Of a stretch of DNA of 50,219 bases, positions 19,449-31,739 are shown in pieces. Source of the DNA: Planctomycetota bacterium (lineage in GTDB: Bacteria > Planctomycetota > MHYJ01 > WSZJ01). The position numbers and the translations under genes are program-made. Every line of letters begins with the position of its first letter. Position 1 is the stretch's first letter. The notes beneath the pieces are model-generated. The model was not told the origin of the DNA. It was given only the letters and a program-made list of their open reading frames with translations, and made no database searches. The DNA lies in assembly GCA_038060895.1 (NCBI GenBank), contig JBBTCT010000035.1, positions 44,891 through 95,109 of the forward strand, given 5' to 3'.

Positions 19449-22400
19449 CTACCTCTTCGGAACTCCGCACTCCCGGATGACCGCACCCGCCCCCTCGCTC
19501 AGCACCAGCACCGAGAACCTGTCCACGTAGTCCAGCTCGTTCGTGCTCAGGCTCGTGTAATCGAACGCGCCGCGCAGGTCTGTGGACCCATCCTTGTAGA
19601 ACTTCACCTCGCCGTCCTTCATCCGCGCGTAGACCTTGATGTAGGTCCTGGGAAGCGGCTTGCCGGATCCCTGCTGCGCGACGCGGAGCTGGCCGTAGTT
19701 CTCCACCACGCTGACGAGCAGCTCGTGCGCGTAGCACGCCTGCGATTTGCGCTTCCCGTCGGCGACGAGCTCGACGATCACGTTCGAGCCGTGGAACTCC
19801 TTCGGCAGGTCGAAGACAAACGTGTTCTTCCCGGCCGGCACGCGAACTTCGTCCGTGCGGTTCGGCTTGATGAACGCGAATTGGCCGGATTGCTGCTGGA
19901 CGAAGGGCTGCCTTGAGAAGAGCAGCTCGATGTCCATGCGGTAGTAGTGAGCGGTGAGGACGGCGAGGTTCTGGACGTTGAGCGTGACGGTTTTCCGCTC
20001 GACGGTGAAATCGAAGTCGGGCTCGCTTGCGGCGAGGCTGGCCTGGCGCTGGTCGCGGTCTTTTTCGTCCACGACCCTGGCGCCGGCTCCCGCAATCTCG
20101 TCGATCTGGGCGAGGGCGTTGCGGAAGAGATTCCGCCAGCGATCGACGGGGTGGTCCTTGTGGCGCTGGGCGAGATCGCGGGCGTCGGAGGGCTTCTCGC
20201 GGCAGAAATCGGCGTAGACCTTGAGGTAATCGTACTGCAACCCTTCGACTCGCTTCGCCCGCTCAGGCCGGAGCTGGAGTTCGTCGAACGTGGCCAGCGC
20301 TTCATCGACGCGGTCCTGCAGGAGCAGGTAGTAGGTCACGGCAAGAATGTCCTGCTCTGTCAGCGGCGCGCGGTACCGGAGAAGCGTCATGAGCCGCACG
20401 TGCTGTTCGGCGAAACGGTTGTTGAGGATTGTGCGGCGGGCGCCGAGTTTCTGCGCGCGCGCATTCACGAGCGGCGCGTACTCCAGGTGCTGGTAGCGGC
20501 GGCGCTCGACGGGCTCGATCGTGACGGGCGTGCTCTTCAGCCAGAGCCCGCACTGGTCGAGCCAGCCGTCCTGGTGGAGCAGGAACTCGCGGAGGCTCGG
20601 GAGATCGTTGTGGTGGATCGCGTAGGACCAGAGCGTGGAGTCGTAGATGTGGCGGCGGGCGAGGAGCACGAGGCACTTCTCGTAGAAGCCGCGGTCCTTC
20701 ATGCGCCACGCGATGAGGCCAAGGTCGGCGCGGTCGGCGTTATGGTCCTCGATCCACTTGAGGACGTCTTTCTCGTCGCCGTGCTGGCTGACCCAGGCCC
20801 ATGAAGACTTGTCGACCTGGCTCAACTCGCGCACGACTTTCATGCGCACCGGCTCCGCGCTGGCGATGAGCTTCTCGTCCTTGGCTACGTGGACGGGGAA
20901 GTGGGGAAACGATCCGGGGTGCGGCCCCTTCGACTCGCTTCGCTCGCTGGGGGCCGGGAAGTAAAAGGAGTACTCGATGGACTCGGTGTTGTAGCTCGAC
21001 AGTTCGACGTGGCGTCCCTTCGTCACGAAGCCGTTGCGGACCGGGATCGCGCCGGTCGGAATCTGCAGTAGCAGGTCGAGTTTCTGGCTGGTGGAGGTGG
21101 GGTTGGTGAGGACGACCTGGCAGGTATAGACGACGTTCACGAGGAACTCGCCGGTGACGTACTTGTCTACCTGTTCGCCGTTCTCTTCGCGAGTGCGGTC
21201 GTCGTCGCGGAAGTAGTTCTGCGAGACGAGGATCGGGACCCGTTCCGCCGACGGTTCCACCGGTTTGATCTCCTTGTGGAACGCCACGGCAGCCGCCTTG
21301 CCCGTCAGTTTCATCCGGGCGCCTTCGAACGTCACTGACGGCTTGCCGGTTTCGAACGGAAGGTCGAGCACCGACAGCGCGAACATCATCTCGGTAAAGT
21401 TGCGGCTCGCGTACGCGAGGTTCGGGGACAGGAACGGCCCCTGCCGGCGGTGCGCCGCGTAGTCGCGCCAGAACGGGTTGACCGTGACGAGCTCTGCTCG
21501 CTGCTGCTCGATCGGCAGGTGCCAGTAATTGTTCTCCGCCCACTCCTGCGTCTTGTCGAGCTTCTGGTAGAACTGCCGCATCCTGCCGCGCGCCCGGGCA
21601 TCCTTCTCGCCGCGGCCGCCGTCGTCGTCGAAGTCGCCGCTCTCCGAGTCCGGCGCCATTTCCGCGAGGCACTCCTCCGCTTCGTCGCGCGGAGCGGACT
21701 TCGACTTCTTCAGCATCTCCTTTCCGGCGGACGCCCGGCGGCCCGCCGGCTTCGGCGCGGCCATCGACGCCGGCGGCGCAGGGGCCATCCTGCCCATGGG
21801 CCCCCGGATCCCGTCGTCGAGCTTCGACAGCGCCGCTCCCTCCATGAGCATCGCCTGCCTGGCGATCCCCAGCAGATCGCCGGCCTCGAGCGCGCTTCCC
21901 ACGATCGCCGAGCCGAACAGGTGGTTGGCCCTCTCGATGTCCCGGGGAAGGAGGTCGTTCAGGTCGCGGGCATGACGCGCGACCGGGTCGCCTTCGTCGT
22001 CGAAGCGCTGGGCCAGGAGGATGCGCTCCACGATGTTGAGGCGGGAGAATGCCCACGGCTTCCGGAACGCGGAGAGGTCGTTTTCGATGAGCCAGTGGTC
22101 GAGAAACGTCTTGTCCAGCTTGTGCTTCAAATATGGCTGCACCACGCGCTTGAACCACTCCGGGTCCTTCTTCGCGATGAAAAAGCCCAGCTCGTGGCAC
22201 GCAAACTCGCTGTACTTCGCGCCCTTCTCTTCCTCGGCCATCCGCGGCCAACGGAGGACGAAGTCGAATTTCGCGAGCTCGGCGTTGCCGGAGAGCGTGG
22301 CGAAGAGCCGGTACACCCGGGCCAGCGTGTCGTACACCTCGGTCTTCGACGTCGTGATGTCGGCGATCTCGAGCGGCTGGCCTGCGGAGAGAACCGTGAC

Positions 22401-25400
22401 CTGCTTCTTTTCGGAGAAGTGCTTCTCAGCATCGAGCGCGAACTTCAGCCGAAGATCCTCGTGCTCCGTCGTGACTTCAGGGAGGAGCACGTCGCGGCAA
22501 ACCGTGTTCAGCGGGTCGATTGCGACGACACGGATCGTGTTCGCGTGCTTCACCGCGTCCCGCGGGATCGTCACCACCCCCTTCGCGTCCGGCTTGAGAT
22601 TCAGCAGCACGGCCGCCGGGTTCGCCAGGAAATCGAGGTTCGCAAACTGCCCCGTTTCCTGAGCCGCCTCTTCCGGCTCCGGCGCCATCGCCATAATCGA
22701 CGCCATCACAGGCTGCCCCGACGCCCCGAACATCCCTCCGGCCGCCGCTTCCTGCGTCGCCGTCTCCGTCGCCCGGATCGCCCAGGGGTTCAAAAGCAGC
22801 CCCGGACGCGTCAGCATGTTCCCCGCGAACTTCGCCGCCTGCCGGCGCTCGAGGATGTAGCGATACTCGTCGCCGATGTCCCGCCCCGAAACGTAATGCG
22901 ATGGCGCCTTCGAGAGCTCGGCTGCCCGGGCGCCCGGGACGGGGACGCGCCCCAGCGTGTCGAACGCTGCGAAGGCAGGGACGAAGCGCGTGCCGAAAAC
23001 GTGGACGCGCGTCTTCTCATTCGCGTTGCCGACCGCGACGCGAAGGTCCCCCTTGCCGGGCGTCACTTCCACTTGAAGCGGCCGCGGGTTGCGCCGCTCC
23101 AGGTGGCGTTTCTCGCCCACGACCCAGCCGCAGCGATCCTCGCCCGGCGTGACGCGCACCGCGATCGAGACCGAATCCCGTTTGAGCGTGAGGAGGTAGT
23201 CCCCCGCGGGGAGTCCGGCAACCTCGAGGTACCCGTCCTTGCGGCTGAGGGCTTTGAAGTGATCGCGCACGAACGTCGGCCCGAGCTGTTCGAGAAGGCA
23301 GGCGTCGCTTCGCTGGACGTTCGTTTCCGCCGGGGCGCTCTTCCCGAACGCGTCCGGGAATGCCACGCCACAGAGCGGCGCGACGTCCATGAGAGGGATG
23401 CGGAACGGTTCCTTCGCGCGGACATGGATGGCTCCGGCAAGCCGGCAGCGGTCGCGGGGAAGAGTCCAGGATTCCGACACGCCCGCCGGCGTGGACACGG
23501 TGAGTGCCGTGATGTCGCGCAGGTGTCCGAGCTCGATGCGGCCGTTCGTGTCGGTCTGAAGAGTCGTGTGAAGCACGGCGCAGAGGTCGCGGTGCTGGAG
23601 CTGGACGTTGAGTGTCGTGCCCGACTTGGGTTCACCGGATTTCCCCGCATGCGTCACGACGAAACCCGCCGCCGTGCGCGCGAGGTGGACGTCCTCGATC
23701 GTCGCTTCCGCATCGATCCCGTTGAGCGAGACGCTCGTGCTGTCGGCCATGTCCTGCTTCTGGTTCAACGAGAGGTTCTGAACCTTGCCCACCAGGGAAA
23801 TCTCCAGCGATGCGAGACCTTCCGGCACCTGGAACGTGTGGGCGGATTCGCTGTCCTCGAACAGGGTGAAGCCCCGCACCTCCTGCCGCGAGCTCACCCC
23901 GTCGCGGTCGGCGGACTGGATGAGGAGCATCGGTTCTTCGAGGAGCGACAGCGCCACCGGGATGCCGTTGACCTGGAGCGACGCGCGCACCACGACCTGC
24001 GCCTCCTTCTTTTTGATCAGGCTCTCCCGGTCCACGTACAGCCCCGCGACCAGCCGGTAATTCTCTCCCTGGTGATCGAACTGCTCGAGGGTCGTGAGAT
24101 TCCCATGCCGAAGCAGGAACGACTGCCGGCCGGGATTCGCGCTGAAGGGAACATGGATCTCCCCGTCCCCTTCAGGCCTGTACTCGCGCCCGCCGAGCCA
24201 GATCGAGGCATCCTTGAGAACTTCGCGATCCTCATTCACAACCGTGAACACATGCCCCGCCGAGCCGGCCCGCTCCAGGAACCGCATCCGGCCCTTGCGC
24301 ACCAGCGCCCGCGAGCTGATACCGCCGCCGATGAACTCCACGATGTAGACGCCGGGATTCGCGAGCCCCGGGAATTTGAAGGTCCTTCGCACGCAGCGGA
24401 TCGGCGGCTCCGTGTACTTGTGCGCCTGCTCTTCCCCCGCAACCAGGCCGTCCAGGTCGATGCTCGTGTCCACGTCGCGGCCGTTCGCGAGGAAGTAGTT
24501 GAGTGCGTTGATCTCGAATACTTTCACCGTGAGCGAAGGCACGTTCTTGACGTCCACTTCGAGCGTCACGGCGTCCTTCGCCTTGAACCAGGCCCGGTTC
24601 GTCTTCGCGAACCCGATCTCCACGCGGTCATTCAGCGCGTGGCAGTACGCCGGGCTGTTGATCATCGCGGTCCACTGCGCCTTGTCCCCTTCGCCCAGGA
24701 GCAGTTTCGTCGATGCGAAGACCGAACGGAGCCACGGCTCGTGGATCCAGGCCTCGAACGCCTTGAAATCCTTCGCGCCCGCAAAGAAGTGCGCGAGGTA
24801 GTCCGTTACCAGCTCCTCGTCCGTTCCGACCGCCGTCTGCAGAGTGACCGTGCAAAAGTCCTCTCCCAACCCGAAAGGCTCTTCGTCCCGCTTGAACCCC
24901 TTCAGATAGTCCGGGTTCGCATACGTCACCTGGCGCGGCAGTTTCAGGTATTCCACGAAGCGCGCCTTGTCCCGCACCCCCACCCGGCGGTCGTGGTCGA
25001 GCCGGTGATACAGCACGTGCGCCTTGAGCGCGTTGAACTTCGGCGCGAGCCCCTTTACGAACTCCCACAACCGCTCCAGCAGCGCCTCCCGCTCCTTCCC
25101 GTCGTTTACCCAGTCCGCGTCCGGTCCCGGGTGCAGCTTCATGAGACGCGCATTCACGTAGTTGTCGTCCGTCATGAGCGCCGGCACGAGCTTGGCCAGC
25201 CGCTCCAGCTGGTCCTCGAGCATCAGACTGTGGATCGGGATCGCCCCGAACCCGCCCGTGTTCTTTCTGTCGTTCAGCTCGGCGGCGACCATTTCCGGCA
25301 GCCGCGCGTAGTCCGGCCGCGCGAGCCGCTGGAGGAGGCTGCGCAGCCGGTGGCCGTCGCGCGGCTCGTCGGCCAGCCATTCGATCGCGGCATCGGTGAA

Positions 25401-25808
25401 CCCGGAGAGATCGGAGCTGTTGCTGTTCGCATAGCCGTGGCGCTTGATTTCGTCGCGGCTCACGAATTTCGGGTCGAGCGCCGAAGGGTACTTCGACTGC
25501 CTGCCCTCGACGACGCGCTCGTGATTGAAGTGCAGCACGAGGTGATAGCGCAGGTACTCCAGCGTCGCTTTCGGATCCTTGTCGTACCGCAGCAAGTGGA
25601 GCCGGTTGCGGATTTCCCGGAACAGCTGCGTCTCCCCGTGGCGCTTGTTCCACTCGGCGAGGAGCGCATCAACTTCCTTCAGGTTTCCGGCCTGCTCCTG
25701 CACCAGGCTGGCGTGGAAGAAGTGCTCTTCGGTGCCGGGGATGAGCTGCTCAAGGGCCTTCGTCCGGTCCTTGGCGAGTGCGAAGTGTTCGAGCTGGTGA
25801 GTGTCCAT
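19449..25808 (-). CDS. Giant (2119 aa) hypothetical protein; helical N-terminus then beta-rich, macroglobulin-like domains
   Basis: Uninterrupted ORF with coding-like composition, SD GGAG; fold assignment is inference. Confidence 0.85.
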   Translation of the reverse strand: MDTHQLEHFALAKDRTKALEQLIPGTEEHFFHASLVQEQAGNLKEVDALLAEWNKRHGETQLFREIRNRLHLLRYDKDPKATLEYLRYHLVLHFNHERVVEGRQSKYPSALDPKFVSRDEIKRHGYANSNSSDLSGFTDAAIEWLADEPRDGHRLRSLLQRLARPDYARLPEMVAAELNDRKNTGGFGAIPIHSLMLEDQLERLAKLVPALMTDDNYVNARLMKLHPGPDADWVNDGKEREALLERLWEFVKGLAPKFNALKAHVLYHRLDHDRRVGVRDKARFVEYLKLPRQVTYANPDYLKGFKRDEEPFGLGEDFCTVTLQTAVGTDEELVTDYLAHFFAGAKDFKAFEAWIHEPWLRSVFASTKLLLGEGDKAQWTAMINSPAYCHALNDRVEIGFAKTNRAWFKAKDAVTLEVDVKNVPSLTVKVFEINALNYFLANGRDVDTSIDLDGLVAGEEQAHKYTEPPIRCVRRTFKFPGLANPGVYIVEFIGGGISSRALVRKGRMRFLERAGSAGHVFTVVNEDREVLKDASIWLGGREYRPEGDGEIHVPFSANPGRQSFLLRHGNLTTLEQFDHQGENYRLVAGLYVDRESLIKKKEAQVVVRASLQVNGIPVALSLLEEPMLLIQSADRDGVSSRQEVRGFTLFEDSESAHTFQVPEGLASLEISLVGKVQNLSLNQKQDMADSTSVSLNGIDAEATIEDVHLARTAAGFVVTHAGKSGEPKSGTTLNVQLQHRDLCAVLHTTLQTDTNGRIELGHLRDITALTVSTPAGVSESWTLPRDRCRLAGAIHVRAKEPFRIPLMDVAPLCGVAFPDAFGKSAPAETNVQRSDACLLEQLGPTFVRDHFKALSRKDGYLEVAGLPAGDYLLTLKRDSVSIAVRVTPGEDRCGWVVGEKRHLERRNPRPLQVEVTPGKGDLRVAVGNANEKTRVHVFGTRFVPAFAAFDTLGRVPVPGARAAELSKAPSHYVSGRDIGDEYRYILERRQAAKFAGNMLTRPGLLLNPWAIRATETATQEAAAGGMFGASGQPVMASIMAMAPEPEEAAQETGQFANLDFLANPAAVLLNLKPDAKGVVTIPRDAVKHANTIRVVAIDPLNTVCRDVLLPEVTTEHEDLRLKFALDAEKHFSEKKQVTVLSAGQPLEIADITTSKTEVYDTLARVYRLFATLSGNAELAKFDFVLRWPRMAEEEKGAKYSEFACHELGFFIAKKDPEWFKRVVQPYLKHKLDKTFLDHWLIENDLSAFRKPWAFSRLNIVERILLAQRFDDEGDPVARHARDLNDLLPRDIERANHLFGSAIVGSALEAGDLLGIARQAMLMEGAALSKLDDGIRGPMGRMAPAPPASMAAPKPAGRRASAGKEMLKKSKSAPRDEAEECLAEMAPDSESGDFDDDGGRGEKDARARGRMRQFYQKLDKTQEWAENNYWHLPIEQQRAELVTVNPFWRDYAAHRRQGPFLSPNLAYASRNFTEMMFALSVLDLPFETGKPSVTFEGARMKLTGKAAAVAFHKEIKPVEPSAERVPILVSQNYFRDDDRTREENGEQVDKYVTGEFLVNVVYTCQVVLTNPTSTSQKLDLLLQIPTGAIPVRNGFVTKGRHVELSSYNTESIEYSFYFPAPSERSESKGPHPGSFPHFPVHVAKDEKLIASAEPVRMKVVRELSQVDKSSWAWVSQHGDEKDVLKWIEDHNADRADLGLIAWRMKDRGFYEKCLVLLARRHIYDSTLWSYAIHHNDLPSLREFLLHQDGWLDQCGLWLKSTPVTIEPVERRRYQHLEYAPLVNARAQKLGARRTILNNRFAEQHVRLMTLLRYRAPLTEQDILAVTYYLLLQDRVDEALATFDELQLRPERAKRVEGLQYDYLKVYADFCREKPSDARDLAQRHKDHPVDRWRNLFRNALAQIDEIAGAGARVVDEKDRDQRQASLAASEPDFDFTVERKTVTLNVQNLAVLTAHYYRMDIELLFSRQPFVQQQSGQFAFIKPNRTDEVRVPAGKNTFVFDLPKEFHGSNVIVELVADGKRKSQACYAHELLVSVVENYGQLRVAQQGSGKPLPRTYIKVYARMKDGEVKFYKDGSTDLRGAFDYTSLSTNELDYVDRFSVLVLSEGAGAVIRECGVPKR
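20241..20269. repeat. REP-like repeat inside CDS, copy A
   Basis: CCCTTCGACTCGCTTCGCCCGCTCAGGCC; read on the minus strand as RPERAKRVEG. Confidence 0.7.
20926..20955. repeat. REP-like repeat inside CDS, copy B
   Basis: CCCTTCGACTCGCTTCGCTCGCTGGGGGCC; 22 of the first 23 nt match copy A; read as PSERSESKG. Confidence 0.7.
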
Positions 25809-25989: not shown

Positions 25990-26640
25990 ATGCCGACTCT
26001 CTCCCCGCGCGACCTCGTCGAACGCCTTTCCTGGCGCTACGCCACCAAGAAGTTCGACGCCACGAAGAAAATTCCCGCCGACGTCTGGGCGGCCCTCGAG
26101 CAGTCCCTGCTTCTCTCCCCGTCCTCCTTCGGCCTCCAGCCCTGGGCCTTCATCGTCGTCAACGACCGCGCCACGCGTGAAAAACTCGTCGCCGCTTCAT
26201 GGAACCAGCCCCAGATTCTCGCCGCCTCTCACCTCGTCGTCTTCGCCATCCGCAAAAACCTCAAGGCCGCCGATGCCGAGAAGCTGATCGACCGCATTGT
26301 CGAGGTGCGAAAAGTGCCACGCGAGTCGCTTGAGGGCCTCAAGGGGATGATGACCGGCTTCCTCGGCAACCCGCCCGCGGGCTTCAAGATCGACGACTGG
26401 TCCGCGCGCCAGGTCTACATCGCCCTGGGGACCTTCCTGACCAGCTGCGCGGCCGTCGGCATCGACGCGTGCCCCATGGAAGGAATCCAGCCGGCCGACT
26501 ACGACCGCATCCTCGGACTCGGCAAACAGGGGCTCGCTGCCGTCTGCGTCGCGACCGCCGGTTACCGGGCAGACGACGACGGCTACGCGAAGCTCCCCAA
26601 GGTGCGCTATCCGGCGGAGCAGATCATTCAGCGCGTCTGA
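25990..26640 (+). CDS. NAD(P)H-dependent nitroreductase, NfsB-like
   Basis: WRYATKKFD, LSPSSFGLQPW, NQPQ, GIDACPMEG, PKVR. Confidence 0.92.
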   Translation: MPTLSPRDLVERLSWRYATKKFDATKKIPADVWAALEQSLLLSPSSFGLQPWAFIVVNDRATREKLVAASWNQPQILAASHLVVFAIRKNLKAADAEKLIDRIVEVRKVPRESLEGLKGMMTGFLGNPPAGFKIDDWSARQVYIALGTFLTSCAAVGIDACPMEGIQPADYDRILGLGKQGLAAVCVATAGYRADDDGYAKLPKVRYPAEQIIQRV

Positions 26641-27502
26641 GGCGGCCTGCCCACTCACGCCATTCCTTTTCCGCTTCCTCCATCTTGCCGTCCAGCACCG
26701 CGGACAGCGCGTCCCAGCCCTTCGGGTCCTTCTCGACCCCGTCCCTGATCTTCTCGTAGAACTCCTCGAGCTTTCCCTTCTCCTGCAGCCACATGCAGAG
26801 GTATCGCGCCTGCGCGTACCGCAGCCCCGAGCCGTCGCCGTAGAACGAAGCCCCCGTGAACTCCAGGAGTTTCTTCCACGAGATGATAGATCCGTCTTTA
26901 AGGGCGCTCTGGAGGATCGGAAGGCGCCAGTTGACGAGCCCTTTGATCTTGCCGTCCTCGGTCGTGCACTGCTCGAAGAGCGACGCGAGGCCTTCGTTGA
27001 ACCACGTCGGCACTTTCGGAAAGTCGATCTCCATGAGCGCGTGCGTCATTTCGTGCACCAGCGTCCCGCTCCCCGTCCCGATGTTCATGACGAGGGATTT
27101 GCGTGAAGGGAGGTAGAAGCCGTACTTGGAGGTCGGGTGGTCGCCCATGAACTTCACGCAGAACGCGTCGTACTTGTCGTGGTTCGGGAGGAGATAGACG
27201 GCAAAGAGGACGTCGGGCTCCTTGTCGAAGAACTGCTTGTGAAGCGCCGTCCGGGAGCGCTCGACGGTGCCGGCGCAGCGTTCCATTTCCGCGGCTTCCA
27301 GGTGGCCGGCGATCAGGAACGGCCCGGCGCGCTTGAAGTCCGCGTCGGCGCCGATGTGCTCCTCCATCGTCGCCCGGAGAGTCTTCTCCTTCTCTTTGTC
27401 GGCCTCCGGCTCCTTCACCGGTCCGTCTTCAGCCCGGCCGGGGGAACAGGCGACGAGACAGGCCAAGGCCAGGAGTGAGGCGACGAGCGTTGTCTTGAGC
27501 AT
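26624..27502 (-). CDS. Exported zinc metallopeptidase-like protein (gluzincin, DUF1570/MA-like)
   Basis: Signal or lipoprotein N-terminus MLKTTLVASLLALACLVAC; HEMTH...PTWFNEGLA. Confidence 0.82.
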   Translation of the reverse strand: MLKTTLVASLLALACLVACSPGRAEDGPVKEPEADKEKEKTLRATMEEHIGADADFKRAGPFLIAGHLEAAEMERCAGTVERSRTALHKQFFDKEPDVLFAVYLLPNHDKYDAFCVKFMGDHPTSKYGFYLPSRKSLVMNIGTGSGTLVHEMTHALMEIDFPKVPTWFNEGLASLFEQCTTEDGKIKGLVNWRLPILQSALKDGSIISWKKLLEFTGASFYGDGSGLRYAQARYLCMWLQEKGKLEEFYEKIRDGVEKDPKGWDALSAVLDGKMEEAEKEWREWAGRLRRAE

Positions 27503-27572
27503 GGCAGCAATCCTACCCGGGGAATCGTGGGTCATGGGGCCAGTCTGGATCGGGCGCCGGATGGTCTTTTTA

Positions 27573-27706
27573 TTTTTTTGCGGGGGCGAGAAGGGATTTC
27601 TGTGGGTCGGGCGGAGTCGGCCCGAATGACGGCGGCCGTCCAATTTCCGGAGTCCGGGCCGGCGCATCCTGACTCACAGAAATCCCTTCTCGCTCCCGCA
27701 AAAAAA
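27573..27706. repeat. Long inverted repeat with 39-bp arms (MITE-like element or structured RNA)
   Basis: 27573-27611 pairs with 27668-27706; 3 mismatches, all G-U on the + strand; inner 9-bp stem. Confidence 0.8.
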
Positions 27707-27735
27707 AGCAGGCGGCCGCGTTCGCGACCGCCTGC
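27700..27735 (-). terminator. Rho-independent terminator of the SelN-like gene
   Basis: GCAGGCGGTCGCGAACGCGGCCGCCTGC followed by T8 on the minus strand, about 20 nt after the stop. Confidence 0.85.
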
Positions 27736-27753
27736 CTCCGGGTCCCGCTTGAA

Positions 27754-28761
27754 CTAGTCCTTCTTGACGACGCCTACTTCCATCCGTCCGTTCCCTGCGC
27801 TGGCGTTCTTGGACTTCGACTTCAACCCTTCGTACTCGGTTTCGAGCTCGACGAGCTTCGTCTTGATTTCACGACGAAGCTTCTCGCCGGCCAGGTTCCA
27901 CTGCTTCTTCAGCCGAAGAGCTTCCGCACTGATTTCGTTCATCCGCTGGCTATCGAGCGAAGTCTGTGTGTGCTTGGGCACGTTTCCGATCCCCTCGCCG
28001 GGCATGGCCTTTTCGCCGTAACGGCCGAAGAAGTGATCGCCGAAGCCGCGGCCCTGGACGAGCTCTTCGACGCTGAACTGGGTCCAGGAGTCGAGGATGT
28101 GTGCGCGGACGTACTTCTGGTCCATCGACGTGCAATGGTTCGTGGTCTTCGTCAGGCGTGAATCGATCGTGCGCTGCAGCATGCCCTTCTTCACCTCGTC
28201 CTTGATCTTCTCGTTCCCGGCGATCGGCGCGAGTTCCTTCCAGACCCAGTTCAGTTCCGCCGCGAGATCCTGCGGCGTCTGGTATCCGGCCATGACATCG
28301 AGGAGCTTGCCGTCAGGTGTGAAGACGCAGATCTGGGTGTTGTGCTCGCCGTCGCCCGTGGCGCAGAAGCCGGCCTTGTCGGTGATTTCGTGAGCAAAGG
28401 AACCGCCGCACGTCGTCTCACCTTCGATGTTTTTCCAGGCGCAGACGAATTTCTCGTTCACCGTCTTGGCGACCATCTTGTCTTTGAGGACGCCCGTCCT
28501 CATCGCGTGAGCGGCGCTTCAGGTGAGCCCATCAAGCTCGCCGAGCATGCGGTAGACCATGACGAGCTTTCCTTCCTTGCGCGCCTTGGGGAAGGCGTCC
28601 TCGTACGACCGGTGGAAGACGATATCGCCGACCTTCACGAACGGTGTGACGGCGGCAATGGTCTGATTTTGATCCGTCTGCGTGTCGGGATCGTCGGCCC
28701 AGACGCAGGTGCCGGCGGCGAGCGTGAGGGCTCCCGCGATGGCGAGGATCGAGGCTTTCAT
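27754..28761 (-). CDS. Exported thioredoxin-fold selenoprotein resembling the selenoprotein N catalytic region
   Basis: SD GAGGAG, signal peptide; EDAFPKARKEGKLVMVYRMLGELDGLT-TGA(28519-28521)-SAAHAMRTGVL continues in frame into ORF 27754..28503. Confidence 0.82.
28485..28502 (-). promoter_or_regulatory. Candidate bacterial SECIS hairpin
   Basis: UGAGGAC-GGGC-GUCCUCA, loop 23 nt 3' of the UGA. Confidence 0.7.
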
Positions 28762-28846
28762 GGCGTGCTCCTCTGGAGAAGGGTTTGTGGGACCCGGGTG
28801 ACGTGGAGGAGGGATCTGCAAGCTGTGTGCCGAAGTGCGCAATACT

Positions 28847-28993: not shown

Positions 28994-29461
28994 TCAGATC
29001 TTTGCGTCCGGATCAACCCCAAATTCCGCAGCCCAGCGCCGCGCCTCTTCATTTGATATCTTCGGCTTCTCTATTCCCTCCACCCGCTCCGGGTCGATCT
29101 GCTTCAGAAACTGCACCACGCTCGCCTGTTTCGCGCGAAGCGCCCTGGTGCGTCCTCCCAGCTCCCGGTCGTTCGTGACCACGCAGACTTCGTTCGGCCG
29201 GCCGCTCCTGCGCACCCACTCGACGATCGCGTCGTCCGCCGTTCCTGTGCGAACGTAAACGACCTCCATCTTCCCGCGTCCCTGCACCTCGTCGGTAAGC
29301 CCGGGAGGCGCCTTGGAAGCGTCAAAAAAGACCACGACGGAGTCCTTCAGGCGTCGGCATCGCGTGAGGAGGTCCTCGCGGCGCGCCTCGATGTCCATTT
29401 CCTCCGCGCCATCGACGCGGCCGGCGAACATGACGTTGTAGCCGTCGATCGCCCAGATCAT
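28994..29461 (-). CDS. NYN-domain (YacP-like) ribonuclease
   Basis: MIWAIDGYNV, VFFDA, TADDAI, VVTNDREL; ATGA overlap with pyrC. Confidence 0.85.
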   Translation of the reverse strand: MIWAIDGYNVMFAGRVDGAEEMDIEARREDLLTRCRRLKDSVVVFFDASKAPPGLTDEVQGRGKMEVVYVRTGTADDAIVEWVRRSGRPNEVCVVTNDRELGGRTRALRAKQASVVQFLKQIDPERVEGIEKPKISNEEARRWAAEFGVDPDAKI

Positions 29462-30741
29462 CGGGCTTCCCGGCAAGGCAGCAGCTTCCCCCCGACCAGT
29501 ACCGCCTCCGGCCGCCCCCTCAGCTTCCATCCGTCGAACGGGCAATTGCGCGAGCGGGACTTGAAGGCGGCCGCGTCCACCGTCCACGTCTTCCTCGGGT
29601 CGAAGATCGTGACGTCGGCGTCGGCTCCCGGCGCGAGCGTTCCCTTGGCGAGCCGAAGGATCCGCGCTGGATTGATCGACATGGTTTCGATCGCCTTCGA
29701 CAGCGTGATATGCCCCGGCTCGACGAGAAACGTCATCACCAGGCCCAGCGTCGTCTCGAGGCCGATGACCCCGAACGGCGCTTCGTTGAACTCGAGCTCC
29801 TTCTCTTCCGTCGCATGCGGCGCGTGGTCGCAGGCAATCACGTCGATCGTCCCGTCGCGCAGGCCCTCGATCATCGCCTGTACGTCCGGTCCCTCGCGAA
29901 GCGGCGGGTTCATCTTGTAGACGGAGTCGTACGAACGCACGCGGTCGTCGGTGAGCGTGAAGTGGTGCGGCGTGACCTCGGCCGTGACCCGCACGCCCGC
30001 CGCTTTCCCCGCCCGCACCTGCGCCGCGCTCCCGCGCGTCGAGATGTGTGCCGCGTGGAGGTGCCCGCCGGTCATCTTCGCGAGGATGACGTCCCGCGCG
30101 ATCATCGATTCCTCGGCCGCCGCCGGAATCCCCTCCAGCCCGAGTTCCATCGAGACTTTCCCTTCGTGCATGCAGCCGCAGCCGAACAGGTTCGGGTCCT
30201 CGGAGTGCTGGATGACGCACCGGTCGAACATCGCCGAGTACTCCAGCGCCAGGCGCATCAGCGCCGCGTTGTGGATCGGCGTCCCGTCGTCGCTGAACGC
30301 CACCGCGCCGCCGCGGAACATCTGCCCGATCTCCGCCAGCTCCTCGCCCTTGCGCCCCTTCGACACCGCTCCGATCGGATAGACGTTGGCCAGCCCGGCA
30401 CGGCGCCCCTGCAGGATCGTGAACTCGACCTGCGCTTCCGAGTCGCACGCCGGCTCGGTGTTCGGCATCGCCGCCACGCTCGTGAAACCGCCGGCGATCG
30501 CCGCCGCGCTGCCGGAAGCAATTGTCTCCTCTTCTTCCTTCCCCGGCTCGCGCAGGTGGACGTGCATGTCGATCAGCCCCGGGCACACGACGAGCCCGCG
30601 CGCGTCGAAGGTCTCCGCGGCCTTCGGCGCCTTCTCCCCGACCGAGACGATCTTCCCGTCGCGCACGAACACGTTGGCGATGCCGTCCACGCCGCAGGCG
30701 GGATCGACAACGTGCCCTCCCTTGATCAGCAGCGTCGTCAC
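29458..30741 (-). CDS. pyrC: Dihydroorotase
   Basis: DMHVHLREPG, MPNT, KMNPPLR, DHAPH. Confidence 0.95.
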   Translation of the reverse strand: MTTLLIKGGHVVDPACGVDGIANVFVRDGKIVSVGEKAPKAAETFDARGLVVCPGLIDMHVHLREPGKEEEETIASGSAAAIAGGFTSVAAMPNTEPACDSEAQVEFTILQGRRAGLANVYPIGAVSKGRKGEELAEIGQMFRGGAVAFSDDGTPIHNAALMRLALEYSAMFDRCVIQHSEDPNLFGCGCMHEGKVSMELGLEGIPAAAEESMIARDVILAKMTGGHLHAAHISTRGSAAQVRAGKAAGVRVTAEVTPHHFTLTDDRVRSYDSVYKMNPPLREGPDVQAMIEGLRDGTIDVIACDHAPHATEEKELEFNEAPFGVIGLETTLGLVMTFLVEPGHITLSKAIETMSINPARILRLAKGTLAPGADADVTIFDPRKTWTVDAAAFKSRSRNCPFDGWKLRGRPEAVLVGGKLLPCREAR

Positions 30742-31739
30742 GCTTTTCCCTCCGTCGAGAAGGGCGCGAACCCGGCCGCGCGGTGGAGCACCGCCATCCG
30801 GACCGCGAGGCCATTCGAAACCTGGTCCAGGATGACGCTTCGCGGCCCGTCCGCCACCTCCGGCGTGATCTCAACGCCCCGGTTGAGCGGACCCGGGTGC
30901 ATGACGAGAATGTCCTTCTTCGCCGTATGCAGCCGGGCGGCATTGAGGCCGAAGAGCCTCGCGTACTCGCGGATCGAGGGAAACATCGGCGGCCCCTTGA
31001 TGCGCTCGTGCTGGATCCGCAGCATGTTGACGACGTCGAGGGAGGGAAGCAGGGCGTCGAGGTCGTAGCTGATTTTGACGCCGAAATCGCGCAGCTCGTC
31101 GGGGATGAGCGTAGCCGGCCCGCAGACCCAGACCTCGGCTCCTAGCTTCGTGAGAGCCCACACGTTCGAGCGCGCGACGCGCGAGTGCAGGATGTCGCCC
31201 ACGATCGCAACGCGCAGCCCTTCGATCTTCCCCTTGTGCTGCAGGATCGTGTCGGCGTCCAGCAGCCCCTGGGTCGGGTGCTCGTGCGCCCCGTCCCCCG
31301 CGTTGACCACCGCGGACTTCACCTGCCGCGTGAGCAGCTCCGGCGCGCCCGAGGAAGGGTGGCGCACCACGAGCACGTCGATTGCCATCGCTTCGATGTT
31401 GAGCGCCGTGTCGACCAGCGTCTCGCCCTTCGAGAGCGAGGACGACCCCGCTGCGAAGTCGAGCGTGTCGGCGCCGAGGCGCCGGGCAGCGAGGTTGAAT
31501 GAGACCTTCGTGCGCGTCGAAGGCTCCACGAACATCGTGACGACGAGGCGGCCCTTGAGAAGCGCTGACTTGCGGGAGTTGGAGGTCGCGAGTTCCCGGT
31601 AGGCCGCCGCCTGCTTGAGAAGAAGGCGGATTTCGTCCGCGGAGAGCTCCTGGAGGCCCAGTAAGTGGCGCGACGACCAGGCAGGTGAGGAAGAGGCGGC
31701 CGGTTTCGATGCGGGGGTCGTCGCTCGGGTGCGGGGCAT
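30738..31739 (-). CDS. pyrB: Aspartate carbamoyltransferase catalytic subunit
   Basis: EPSTRT, HEHPTQGLLD, GDILHSRV, MHPGPLNRG. Confidence 0.95.
   Translation of the reverse strand: MPRTRATTPASKPAASSSPAWSSRHLLGLQELSADEIRLLLKQAAAYRELATSNSRKSALLKGRLVVTMFVEPSTRTKVSFNLAARRLGADTLDFAAGSSSLSKGETLVDTALNIEAMAIDVLVVRHPSSGAPELLTRQVKSAVVNAGDGAHEHPTQGLLDADTILQHKGKIEGLRVAIVGDILHSRVARSNVWALTKLGAEVWVCGPATLIPDELRDFGVKISYDLDALLPSLDVVNMLRIQHERIKGPPMFPSIREYARLFGLNAARLHTAKKDILVMHPGPLNRGVEITPEVADGPRSVILDQVSNGLAVRMAVLHRAAGFAPFSTEGKA

Follow-up and report, generated by a model that had tools for sequence, protein, structure and literature searches.

Does a gene of a Planctomycetota bacterium that appears as two adjacent open reading frames (ORFs) encode one exported selenoprotein, and, if so, to which family does it belong? 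The question arises from a 50,219-nucleotide stretch of assembly GCA_038060895.1 (contig JBBTCT010000035.1, positions 44,891 to 95,109), hereafter the window, whose minus strand holds the ORFs 28519..28842 and 27754..28503. A preliminary description, made from the letters alone, had joined these into a single hidden gene for an exported protein resembling animal selenoprotein N (SelN). We assign a probability of roughly 0.85 to the locus being one gene that encodes an exported selenoprotein of 335 residues, with UGA codon 81 recoded as selenocysteine (Sec).

The frame was inspected first at the level of the letters. From ATG 28761 to the TAG at 27756-27754, the minus strand forms a single frame, with the TGA at 28521-28519 (codon 81) as its sole interruption. 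The latter is followed by five sense codons (S-A-A-H-A) and then by ATG 28503, where the second ORF begins, so that the two ORFs are halves of one frame, in agreement with the preliminary description. With TGA translated as U, reading from ATG 28761 gave a continuous 335-residue product in which codon 81 is U and the TAG is the next stop. The whole gene thus occupies 27754..28761 on the minus strand, including the stop codon, and the alignment with homologues extends across the TGA in both directions. This codon is preceded by the signal peptide and by the first half of the fold, and the remaining fold lies 3' of it.

Conservation of the TGA was assessed by a six-frame search with the read-through product across 401 genomes of the same phylum, which returned 125 match rows in 75 genomes. 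An in-frame TGA was present in 115 rows (one TGA in 114 and two in 1) and none in 10; this count is tempered in that the TGA column was confirmed for the 30 best loci, the weaker rows having been credited for any in-frame TGA. The 30 best loci were taken by protein similarity alone and carried the TGA at the identical column in every case (30/30, and 29/29 in alignment A1, from which one locus was left out for masked bases). Identity to the window protein ranged from 22% to 90% within the 29-sequence alignment, and invariant residues flanked the TGA on both sides (G74, U81, A83, R88, N141, Q143, G151, G159 and E169), with the local motif G-x-L-x-G-x-[T/L]-U-S-A-[G/A]-[H/Q/N]-x-x-R.

The 10 rows lacking a TGA comprised six members of a Cys family (S-C-A-N-S-R-F-F-R), three ordinary DUF255 proteins (CHWC) and one other thioredoxin-like protein, and the six Cys-form loci had TGC or TGT at the Sec column. 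Further Cys forms were sought with a profile of residues 43-115 against a library of 1.84 billion representative proteins at E<=1e-3, a search that suits full-length over truncated calls. It retrieved 1386 representatives, and among the 150 listed the U column held Cys in 145, Trp in 2, Ser in 1, Ala in 1 and a gap in 1. Homologues with TGA and homologues with Cys at this column thus both exist, the comparison that the preliminary description had named. Judging from these alignments, the TGA is conserved, not accidental, and very probably stands for selenocysteine.

A perfect 7-bp hairpin with a G-initiated loop, which the preliminary description had placed 23 nt after the TGA, was found by folding and comparison at 28485..28502 of the minus strand (UGAGGAC-GGGC-GUCCUCA, that is, U-GAGGAC/GUCCUC-A around the loop GGGC). 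It overlaps codons M86-K92, and 17 nt separate the UGA from the beginning of its stem, whereas the 23 nt refer to the start of the loop. All 30 loci have a hairpin starting 17-19 nt after the UGA, with GGGC, CGUGAC, GGU or GUU as the loop. The commonest form was GAGRRC-CGUGAC-GYYCUC and that of the window's genus GAGGAC-GGNC-GUCCUC, while three loci had an unrelated stem at the same place (CGCUACG-GGU-CGUAGCG) and one had GAGGGGA-GUU-UCCCUUC. A stem-loop shortly 3' of the UGA with a G in the apical loop is the feature by which the bSECISearch literature recognises a bacterial selenocysteine insertion sequence (SECIS), and it was present in 30/30 loci.

Pairing was then examined column by column. 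In the majority register, 86.7% of cells paired, a value reached by 0/500 shuffles, and sliding the partner by 1-3 columns reduced it to 26-68%. One stem pair is G-C in 19 sequences but A-U in 7. In alignment A3, a G-C/A-U switch between columns 31 and 40 (codons +8 and +12 after Sec) coincides with R-A-V-T-L versus R-T-V-T-F, paired amino-acid changes that suggest a constraint of RNA pairing on the protein sequence. The codon of the invariant Arg88 belongs to the 5' arm, and 27/30 loci use AGA or AGG for it, compared with an AGR share of 12.4% among the other Arg codons of these ORFs; the Cys forms encode this Arg by CGC or CGT in 6/6 and have no hairpin. Mean minimum free energies were -5.0 kcal/mol for the Cys forms and -10.2 kcal/mol for the TGA loci (Mann-Whitney p 1.5e-4). 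The three paralogues within the same genome have a hairpin at the same offset, and one of the two that lie in tandem on contig C33 has a compensatory GCGAAC/GUUCGC stem. From these comparisons, the hairpin very probably behaves like a SECIS, kept by compensatory changes and by the unusual AGR arginine codon.

The DNA pattern "UGA, S-A codons, spacer, hairpin" was also scanned over one genome per species. At least 119 further stretches were retrieved, and the 119 listed were all family members according to the protein profile (E <=2.9e-22); since the pattern requires a hairpin, these loci give no independent evidence for it.

The preliminary description had made its reading depend on selA, selB, selC and selD, and all four are present in the assembly, which comprises 47 contigs and is 86.5% complete. 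The tRNA-Sec scored 71.7 bits, in agreement with ARAGORN (anticodon TCA), and selB (310.7 bits), selA (541 bits) and selD (364 bits) all exceeded their curated cut-offs. The selD gene (contig C2:48628-49548) has one in-frame TGA and is probably a selenoprotein gene itself. Within the window, TGA ends 17/34 long ORFs with a high G+C content at third codon positions (GC3), both neighbouring genes included, and is therefore an ordinary stop in this genome that has not been reassigned. Because the TGA column is conserved, homologues have Cys at the same column, a hairpin follows and the Sec machinery is present, we read the TGA at 28519..28521 as very probably selenocysteine.

Two other fates of the UGA must be weighed against recoding. 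Public annotation speaks for a real stop, and hence for two genes, a nonsense-broken gene or an assembly error: public calls begin after the TGA, and 20/20 near-length homologues in a 5.8-billion-protein collection have 241-253 residues and cover the C-terminal part only (53-74% of the query). We consider this exceedingly improbable, however, given that the same TGA column recurs in 30/30 loci over the full span of identities and that every one of the further pattern-selected loci belongs to the family. Moreover, neither half makes a complete fold, and the signal peptide would be cut off from most of the domain. As to an assembly error, contigs from two other runs retain the sequence, which speaks for the TGA with regard to the preliminary description's concern about support from reads. 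A 315-nt contig from an aquifer metatranscriptome library spans 28326-28640, including the TGA and the hairpin, with 0 differences. A 928-nt contig from a separate DNA study covers 27738-28665 with 52 differences, of which none of those listed falls within 28397-28718 and 14 are unlisted.

Alternatively, near-cognate suppression or a reassigned code might place another residue at the codon, for example Trp, Cys or Gly. Two of the 150 listed representatives (P0023 and P0035) do have Trp at the Sec column, and some gene callers used TGA=Trp. Against this stand the ordinary use of TGA as a stop in the window, the complete Sec machinery of the genome, Cys as the partner residue of the homologues and a hairpin that occurs only where the TGA is present, and we judge non-Sec read-through to be very improbable. 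Recoding of UGA-81 as selenocysteine is thus retained in what follows.

The protein would be exported via a predicted Sec-type signal peptide comprising residues 1-22 (MKASILAIAGALTLAAGTCVWA, then DD; 28696..28761, minus strand), which was assigned by hydropathy with the cleavage site set by eye. An N-terminal 12-residue window with a mean Kyte-Doolittle hydropathy >=1.6 was found in 29/29 aligned homologues, whose start codons had been picked partly with hydrophobic N-terminal segments as a guide. The export claimed in the preliminary description therefore stands as a prediction.

An AlphaFold2 (AF2) model, with a mean predicted local distance difference test (pLDDT) score of 81, places a thioredoxin fold at residues 41-181 (28219..28641, minus strand), with Sec81 at the N-terminus of helix 82-89. 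Both the model and the fold matches thus have the active residue at the N-terminal end of the helix after the second strand, as is expected of a thioredoxin fold. In the alignment to 3ira, U81 falls on the first Cys of the CHWC motif. The CxxC pair itself is missing, as the motif is U-S-A-[AG], position +3 being occupied by G (17 sequences), A (10) or N (2) among the 29; Sec itself is preceded by T (21), L (7) or A (1). According to the model, the protein is a thioredoxin fold of the Thioredoxin_7/DsbH type.

The C-terminal region (residues 188-322; 27796..28200, minus strand) was modelled as helices spanning 188-234, then a linker of low confidence (241-261) and finally a long helical hairpin (263-322), and a fold search with this region returned generic helical-hairpin matches only. 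The coiled-coil C-terminus of the preliminary description holds in so far as the region is helical and coiled-coil-like in this genus; it does not extend to the family, as the tail is alignable solely within the genus.

Beyond the gene structure, the conserved TGA, the hairpin, the Sec machinery and the fold, which the analysis shows, we infer SelB-dependent insertion at codon 81, export, a single-selenol redox cycle and the involvement of partners, in the following manner. UGA-81 would be recoded by the organism's SelA, SelB, SelD and tRNA-Sec, directed by a SECIS inside the coding sequence 17 nt downstream. Removal of the signal peptide would yield a mature thioredoxin-fold protein of the Thioredoxin_7/DsbH type, in which Sec would cap the N-terminus of the active-site helix, in place of the nucleophilic first Cys of CxxC, and Ala/Gly would replace the second Cys (T-U-S-A-A-H). 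The protein would then act as an extracytoplasmic single-selenol oxidoreductase, whose selenolate would attack an oxidised substrate, for instance a peroxide, a disulfide or a sulfenic acid. An external thiol or a partner protein would resolve the selenenylsulfide or selenenic acid so formed, in the way of monothiol (CxxS-type) thioredoxin-fold proteins. Three invariant residues, Arg88, Asn141 and Gln143, may shape the site, the latter two flanking the usual cis-Pro position.

The same residues could also be accommodated by GPx-like selenol peroxidase chemistry, in which a peroxide would oxidise Sec81 to a selenenic acid and the invariant Asn141 and Gln143 would stabilise it. GPx itself relies on a tetrad of Sec, Gln, Trp and Asn. 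The family has a single Sec with no conserved resolving Cys, and the invariant Asn and Gln adjoin the active-site loop, in keeping with such chemistry. However, no GPx or peroxiredoxin match was found in Pfam, PDB-sequence or fold searches, and the proximity of Asn141 and Gln143 to Sec81 is gauged from sequence position, so we regard a peroxidase as unlikely.

Several points weigh against the selenoprotein reading or the chemistry attached to it. The presence of Sec at position 81, which we hold to be highly probable, rests on sequence comparison, selenium in the protein being predicted. The 101-nt stretch of the window folds no better than its shuffles (z 0.10), and the hairpin is therefore persuasive solely via comparison with other loci. 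Under synonymous-codon resampling, only 10/30 loci reached <=0.05, with a mean z of -1.35, and an Rfam scan of 28400-28600 found no SECIS model, only matches at chance level (E 0.64 or more). Because the sequences share ancestry, the shuffle and codon statistics make the support look stronger than it is. The contig from the RNA library may derive from contaminating DNA and is thus no evidence of transcription. Pfam scores of the window protein were 17.2 bits for Thioredox_DsbH (PF03190) and 12.7 bits for Thioredoxin_7 (PF13899), compared with a gathering cut-off of 27. There is no conserved second Cys, the best other column having Cys in 15/29, which makes the redox cycle speculative. Finally, a neighbourhood comparison within about 1.5 kb revealed no family-wide partner and none indicating a substrate.

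Whether the protein is related to SelN was considered separately. The preliminary description had linked the two through a residue-level resemblance to the SELENON active site, which we take to be a lead only. On this proposal, the protein would be a bacterial member or direct homologue of the catalytic domain of animal SelN, with Sec at the homologous position, and we entertain it tentatively. In a 2026 SelN review, SelN is described with Sec in an SCUG motif, a thioredoxin-like C-terminal part facing the lumen of the endoplasmic reticulum (ER), an EF-hand, a type II membrane anchor and the pathogenic variant p.Arg466Gln, four residues after Sec462. By that description, both are extracytoplasmic or lumenal thioredoxin-like proteins with Sec in the active-site motif, and the bacterial Cys family has an Arg at +4 from the active Cys (S-C-A-N-S-R), the spacing of Arg466 from Sec462. 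One paralogue within the same genome, on contig C6, has a Cys adjoining Sec (G-C-U-A-A-G), and among the fold matches are AGR2/AGR3, ERp18 and UAS domains, eukaryotic ER proteins sharing this type of fold.

In contrast, the window protein has T-U-S-A and not SCUG, a cleavable signal peptide by prediction instead of a type II anchor, and no EF-hand or other SelN-type domain in Pfam at E up to 1; SELENON further differs in its eukaryotic Sec-insertion system. Part of the pattern after the active site (V-L-S-D, N-E-x-F-V) is shared with the alignments to 3ira (DUF255) and 2lst (a Thermus thioredoxin), and may thus be a signature of the wider fold group that is not specific to SelN. The 10 of the 150 listed representatives that were looked up were all unnamed or "hypothetical". 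PDB sequence searches returned no SELENON chain among their matches, and a literature search on bacterial SelN-like proteins found nothing relevant. On balance, the T-U-S-A family and its Cys relatives could be prokaryotic counterparts of the SelN catalytic thioredoxin-like domain, although we lean towards doubting it, and for distant homology at the level of the domain the odds are likewise unfavourable, if not heavily so.

Comparison with catalogued families was performed on 29 members, none of which matched a Pfam or NCBIfam model at its cut-off. The NCBIfam collection employed, release 20, should include the models of Haft and Tolstoy from 2025. Weak Pfam matches were obtained to Thioredox_DsbH (7/29), Thioredoxin_7 (3/29) and Thioredoxin_2 (1/29). 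The nearest detectable relatives are Thioredox_DsbH/DUF255 (PF03190; 3ira), Thioredoxin_7 (PF13899) and DsbD-gamma-like domains (3f9u, 1vrs). Compared with DsbH, DUF255 and Thioredoxin_7, the family has Sec for the first Cys and is without the second Cys of CxxC, has N-x-Q at the usual cis-Pro loop and carries a C-terminal helical extension of its own.

The homologous Cys family, itself unnamed, has the motif L-G-x-L-x-D-x-x-S-C-A-N-S-R-F-F-R and 400-550 residues, and shares the thioredoxin-domain N-half (local E of 1e-15 to 1e-16, and E of about 1e-10 in the 1.84-billion-protein library). It has Cys at the Sec column and likewise an Arg at +7, but differs in using Cys instead of Sec, in lacking the hairpin, in encoding the Arg by CGY, and in its greater length and other C-terminus. 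The 10/10 representatives looked up had no name beyond "hypothetical", as stated above, and 12 scanned against Pfam gave a single DUF255 match. An Atlas search with two natural Cys homologues returned unnamed clusters only, the nearest in Myxococcota, Acidobacteriota and Planctomycetota; Thioredoxin_7-type clusters in the Atlas scored <0.8 and are leads only.

Among NCBIfam entries for exported proteins of planctomycete type, the VPGUxxT (NF041382/NF041383) and Trx7/PDZ (NF041199) families are thioredoxin-like (seleno)proteins by name and match the same N-terminal region weakly. NF041199 scored 11.8 bits against a cut-off of 300, and NF041383 was hit by 2/29 members (best E 0.0044, curated cut-off 275 bits), with no other NCBIfam model among the 29. 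Their motifs, VPGU and CxxU, differ from that of the present family (review table, PMC13188914). AGR2/AGR3 are single-Cys proteins of the same fold group and serve as a comparison of how such a protein works only, being eukaryotic ER proteins with Cys instead of Sec and without a sequence-level match.

Table 1 of a May 2026 review (PMC13188914), which covers 119 prokaryotic selenoprotein families, contains no DUF255-like, SelN-like or U-S-A entry. In that review, the selenoprotein families common to prokaryotes and eukaryotes are given as SelD, GPX, deiodinase-like, SELENOW-like and MsrA. A search of the literature on selenocysteine in Melainabacteria found nothing. Novelty was thus judged on the basis of the review table (PMC13188914), NCBIfam release 20 and public annotations, which are truncated at the TGA.

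The taxonomic range was derived from 80 titled pattern loci, of which 37 were assigned to Planctomycetota, 22 to Obscuribacterales/Melainabacteria, relatives of cyanobacteria that do not photosynthesise, and 11 to other cyanobacterial names; the remainder comprised two from Armatimonadota, two from "Proteobacteria", one from Akkermansiaceae and five unlabelled. These taxa are the labels of metagenome-assembled genomes (MAGs), some possibly mis-binned. Loci L108, L122 and L127 are family members in MAGs that bear the names of photosynthetic cyanobacteria (Planktothrix and Oculatellaceae), and may represent either mis-binned Obscuribacterales DNA or a truly wider range.

The window's genome has four family matches. 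The three paralogues are located on contig C6 (locus L060, TGA at locus position 797) and, in tandem, on contig C33 (locus L061, TGAs at 1183 and 2010). The C6 paralogue, in which Cys adjoins Sec, has a second in-frame TGA just past the signal peptide (E-A-D-C-U-T-K) and may hold two Sec residues.

Upstream of the ATG, a Shine-Dalgarno-like GAGGAG is apparent at 28768..28773 (minus strand), 6 nt 5' of the start codon, as read off the sequence. Downstream, a strong intrinsic terminator at 27700..27735 (minus strand) consists of a 12-13 bp GC-rich stem, a GAAC loop and U8, with a folding energy of -40.7 kcal/mol (z -4.3) that 0/200 shuffles equalled. The consensus terminator scan did not list a terminator on the minus strand here, but the direct fold revealed it at 27735-27700, and the stable fold and U8 substantiate the gene's own terminator proposed in the preliminary description.

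The gene following on the same strand (26624-27535, minus) probably codes for a lipoprotein; its product has an HExxH motif and matches Peptidase_MA_2 weakly (29 bits, cut-off 32.4), and such a Peptidase_MA-like lipoprotein gene lies 3' of the selenoprotein gene in 4/4 loci of the genus. In one subfamily (L025-L028 and L034), a gene for an extracytoplasmic function (ECF)-type sigma factor follows in five loci and one for a putative anti-sigma factor in four of these, the domains having been assigned by eye; this arrangement hints at envelope-stress regulation in that subfamily. On the upstream side of the window gene, a YacP-like NYN domain protein (28994-29500, minus) and a dihydroorotase-like amidohydrolase (29458-30741, minus) are encoded by ORFs that overlap by 43 bases (29458-29500), and a 649-residue ORF at 28994-30943 is spurious, arising from the high G+C content. 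Elsewhere in the window, a 2119-residue ORF spans 19449-25808 (minus) with a GC3 of 0.88.

Overall, the locus is very likely a real, ordinary-looking but uncatalogued selenoprotein gene from a large exported thioredoxin-fold family with a lone-Sec active site. A lone Sec replacing CxxC in an exported protein would be an unusual active site, and the SECIS overlaps conserved codons such that RNA pairing appears to dictate codon choice, with AGR for Arg. If the tentative link to SelN were true, the SelN active site would have arisen in bacteria and its substrate chemistry would be approachable in bacteria and with simple recombinant proteins, which would provide a bacterial handle on a human disease protein. 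The large, recurrent selenoprotein family itself was apparently missed by annotation pipelines, and because its members recur, with several per Planctomycetota genome, the selenoproteomes of Planctomycetota and of Obscuribacterales/Melainabacteria are probably underestimated.

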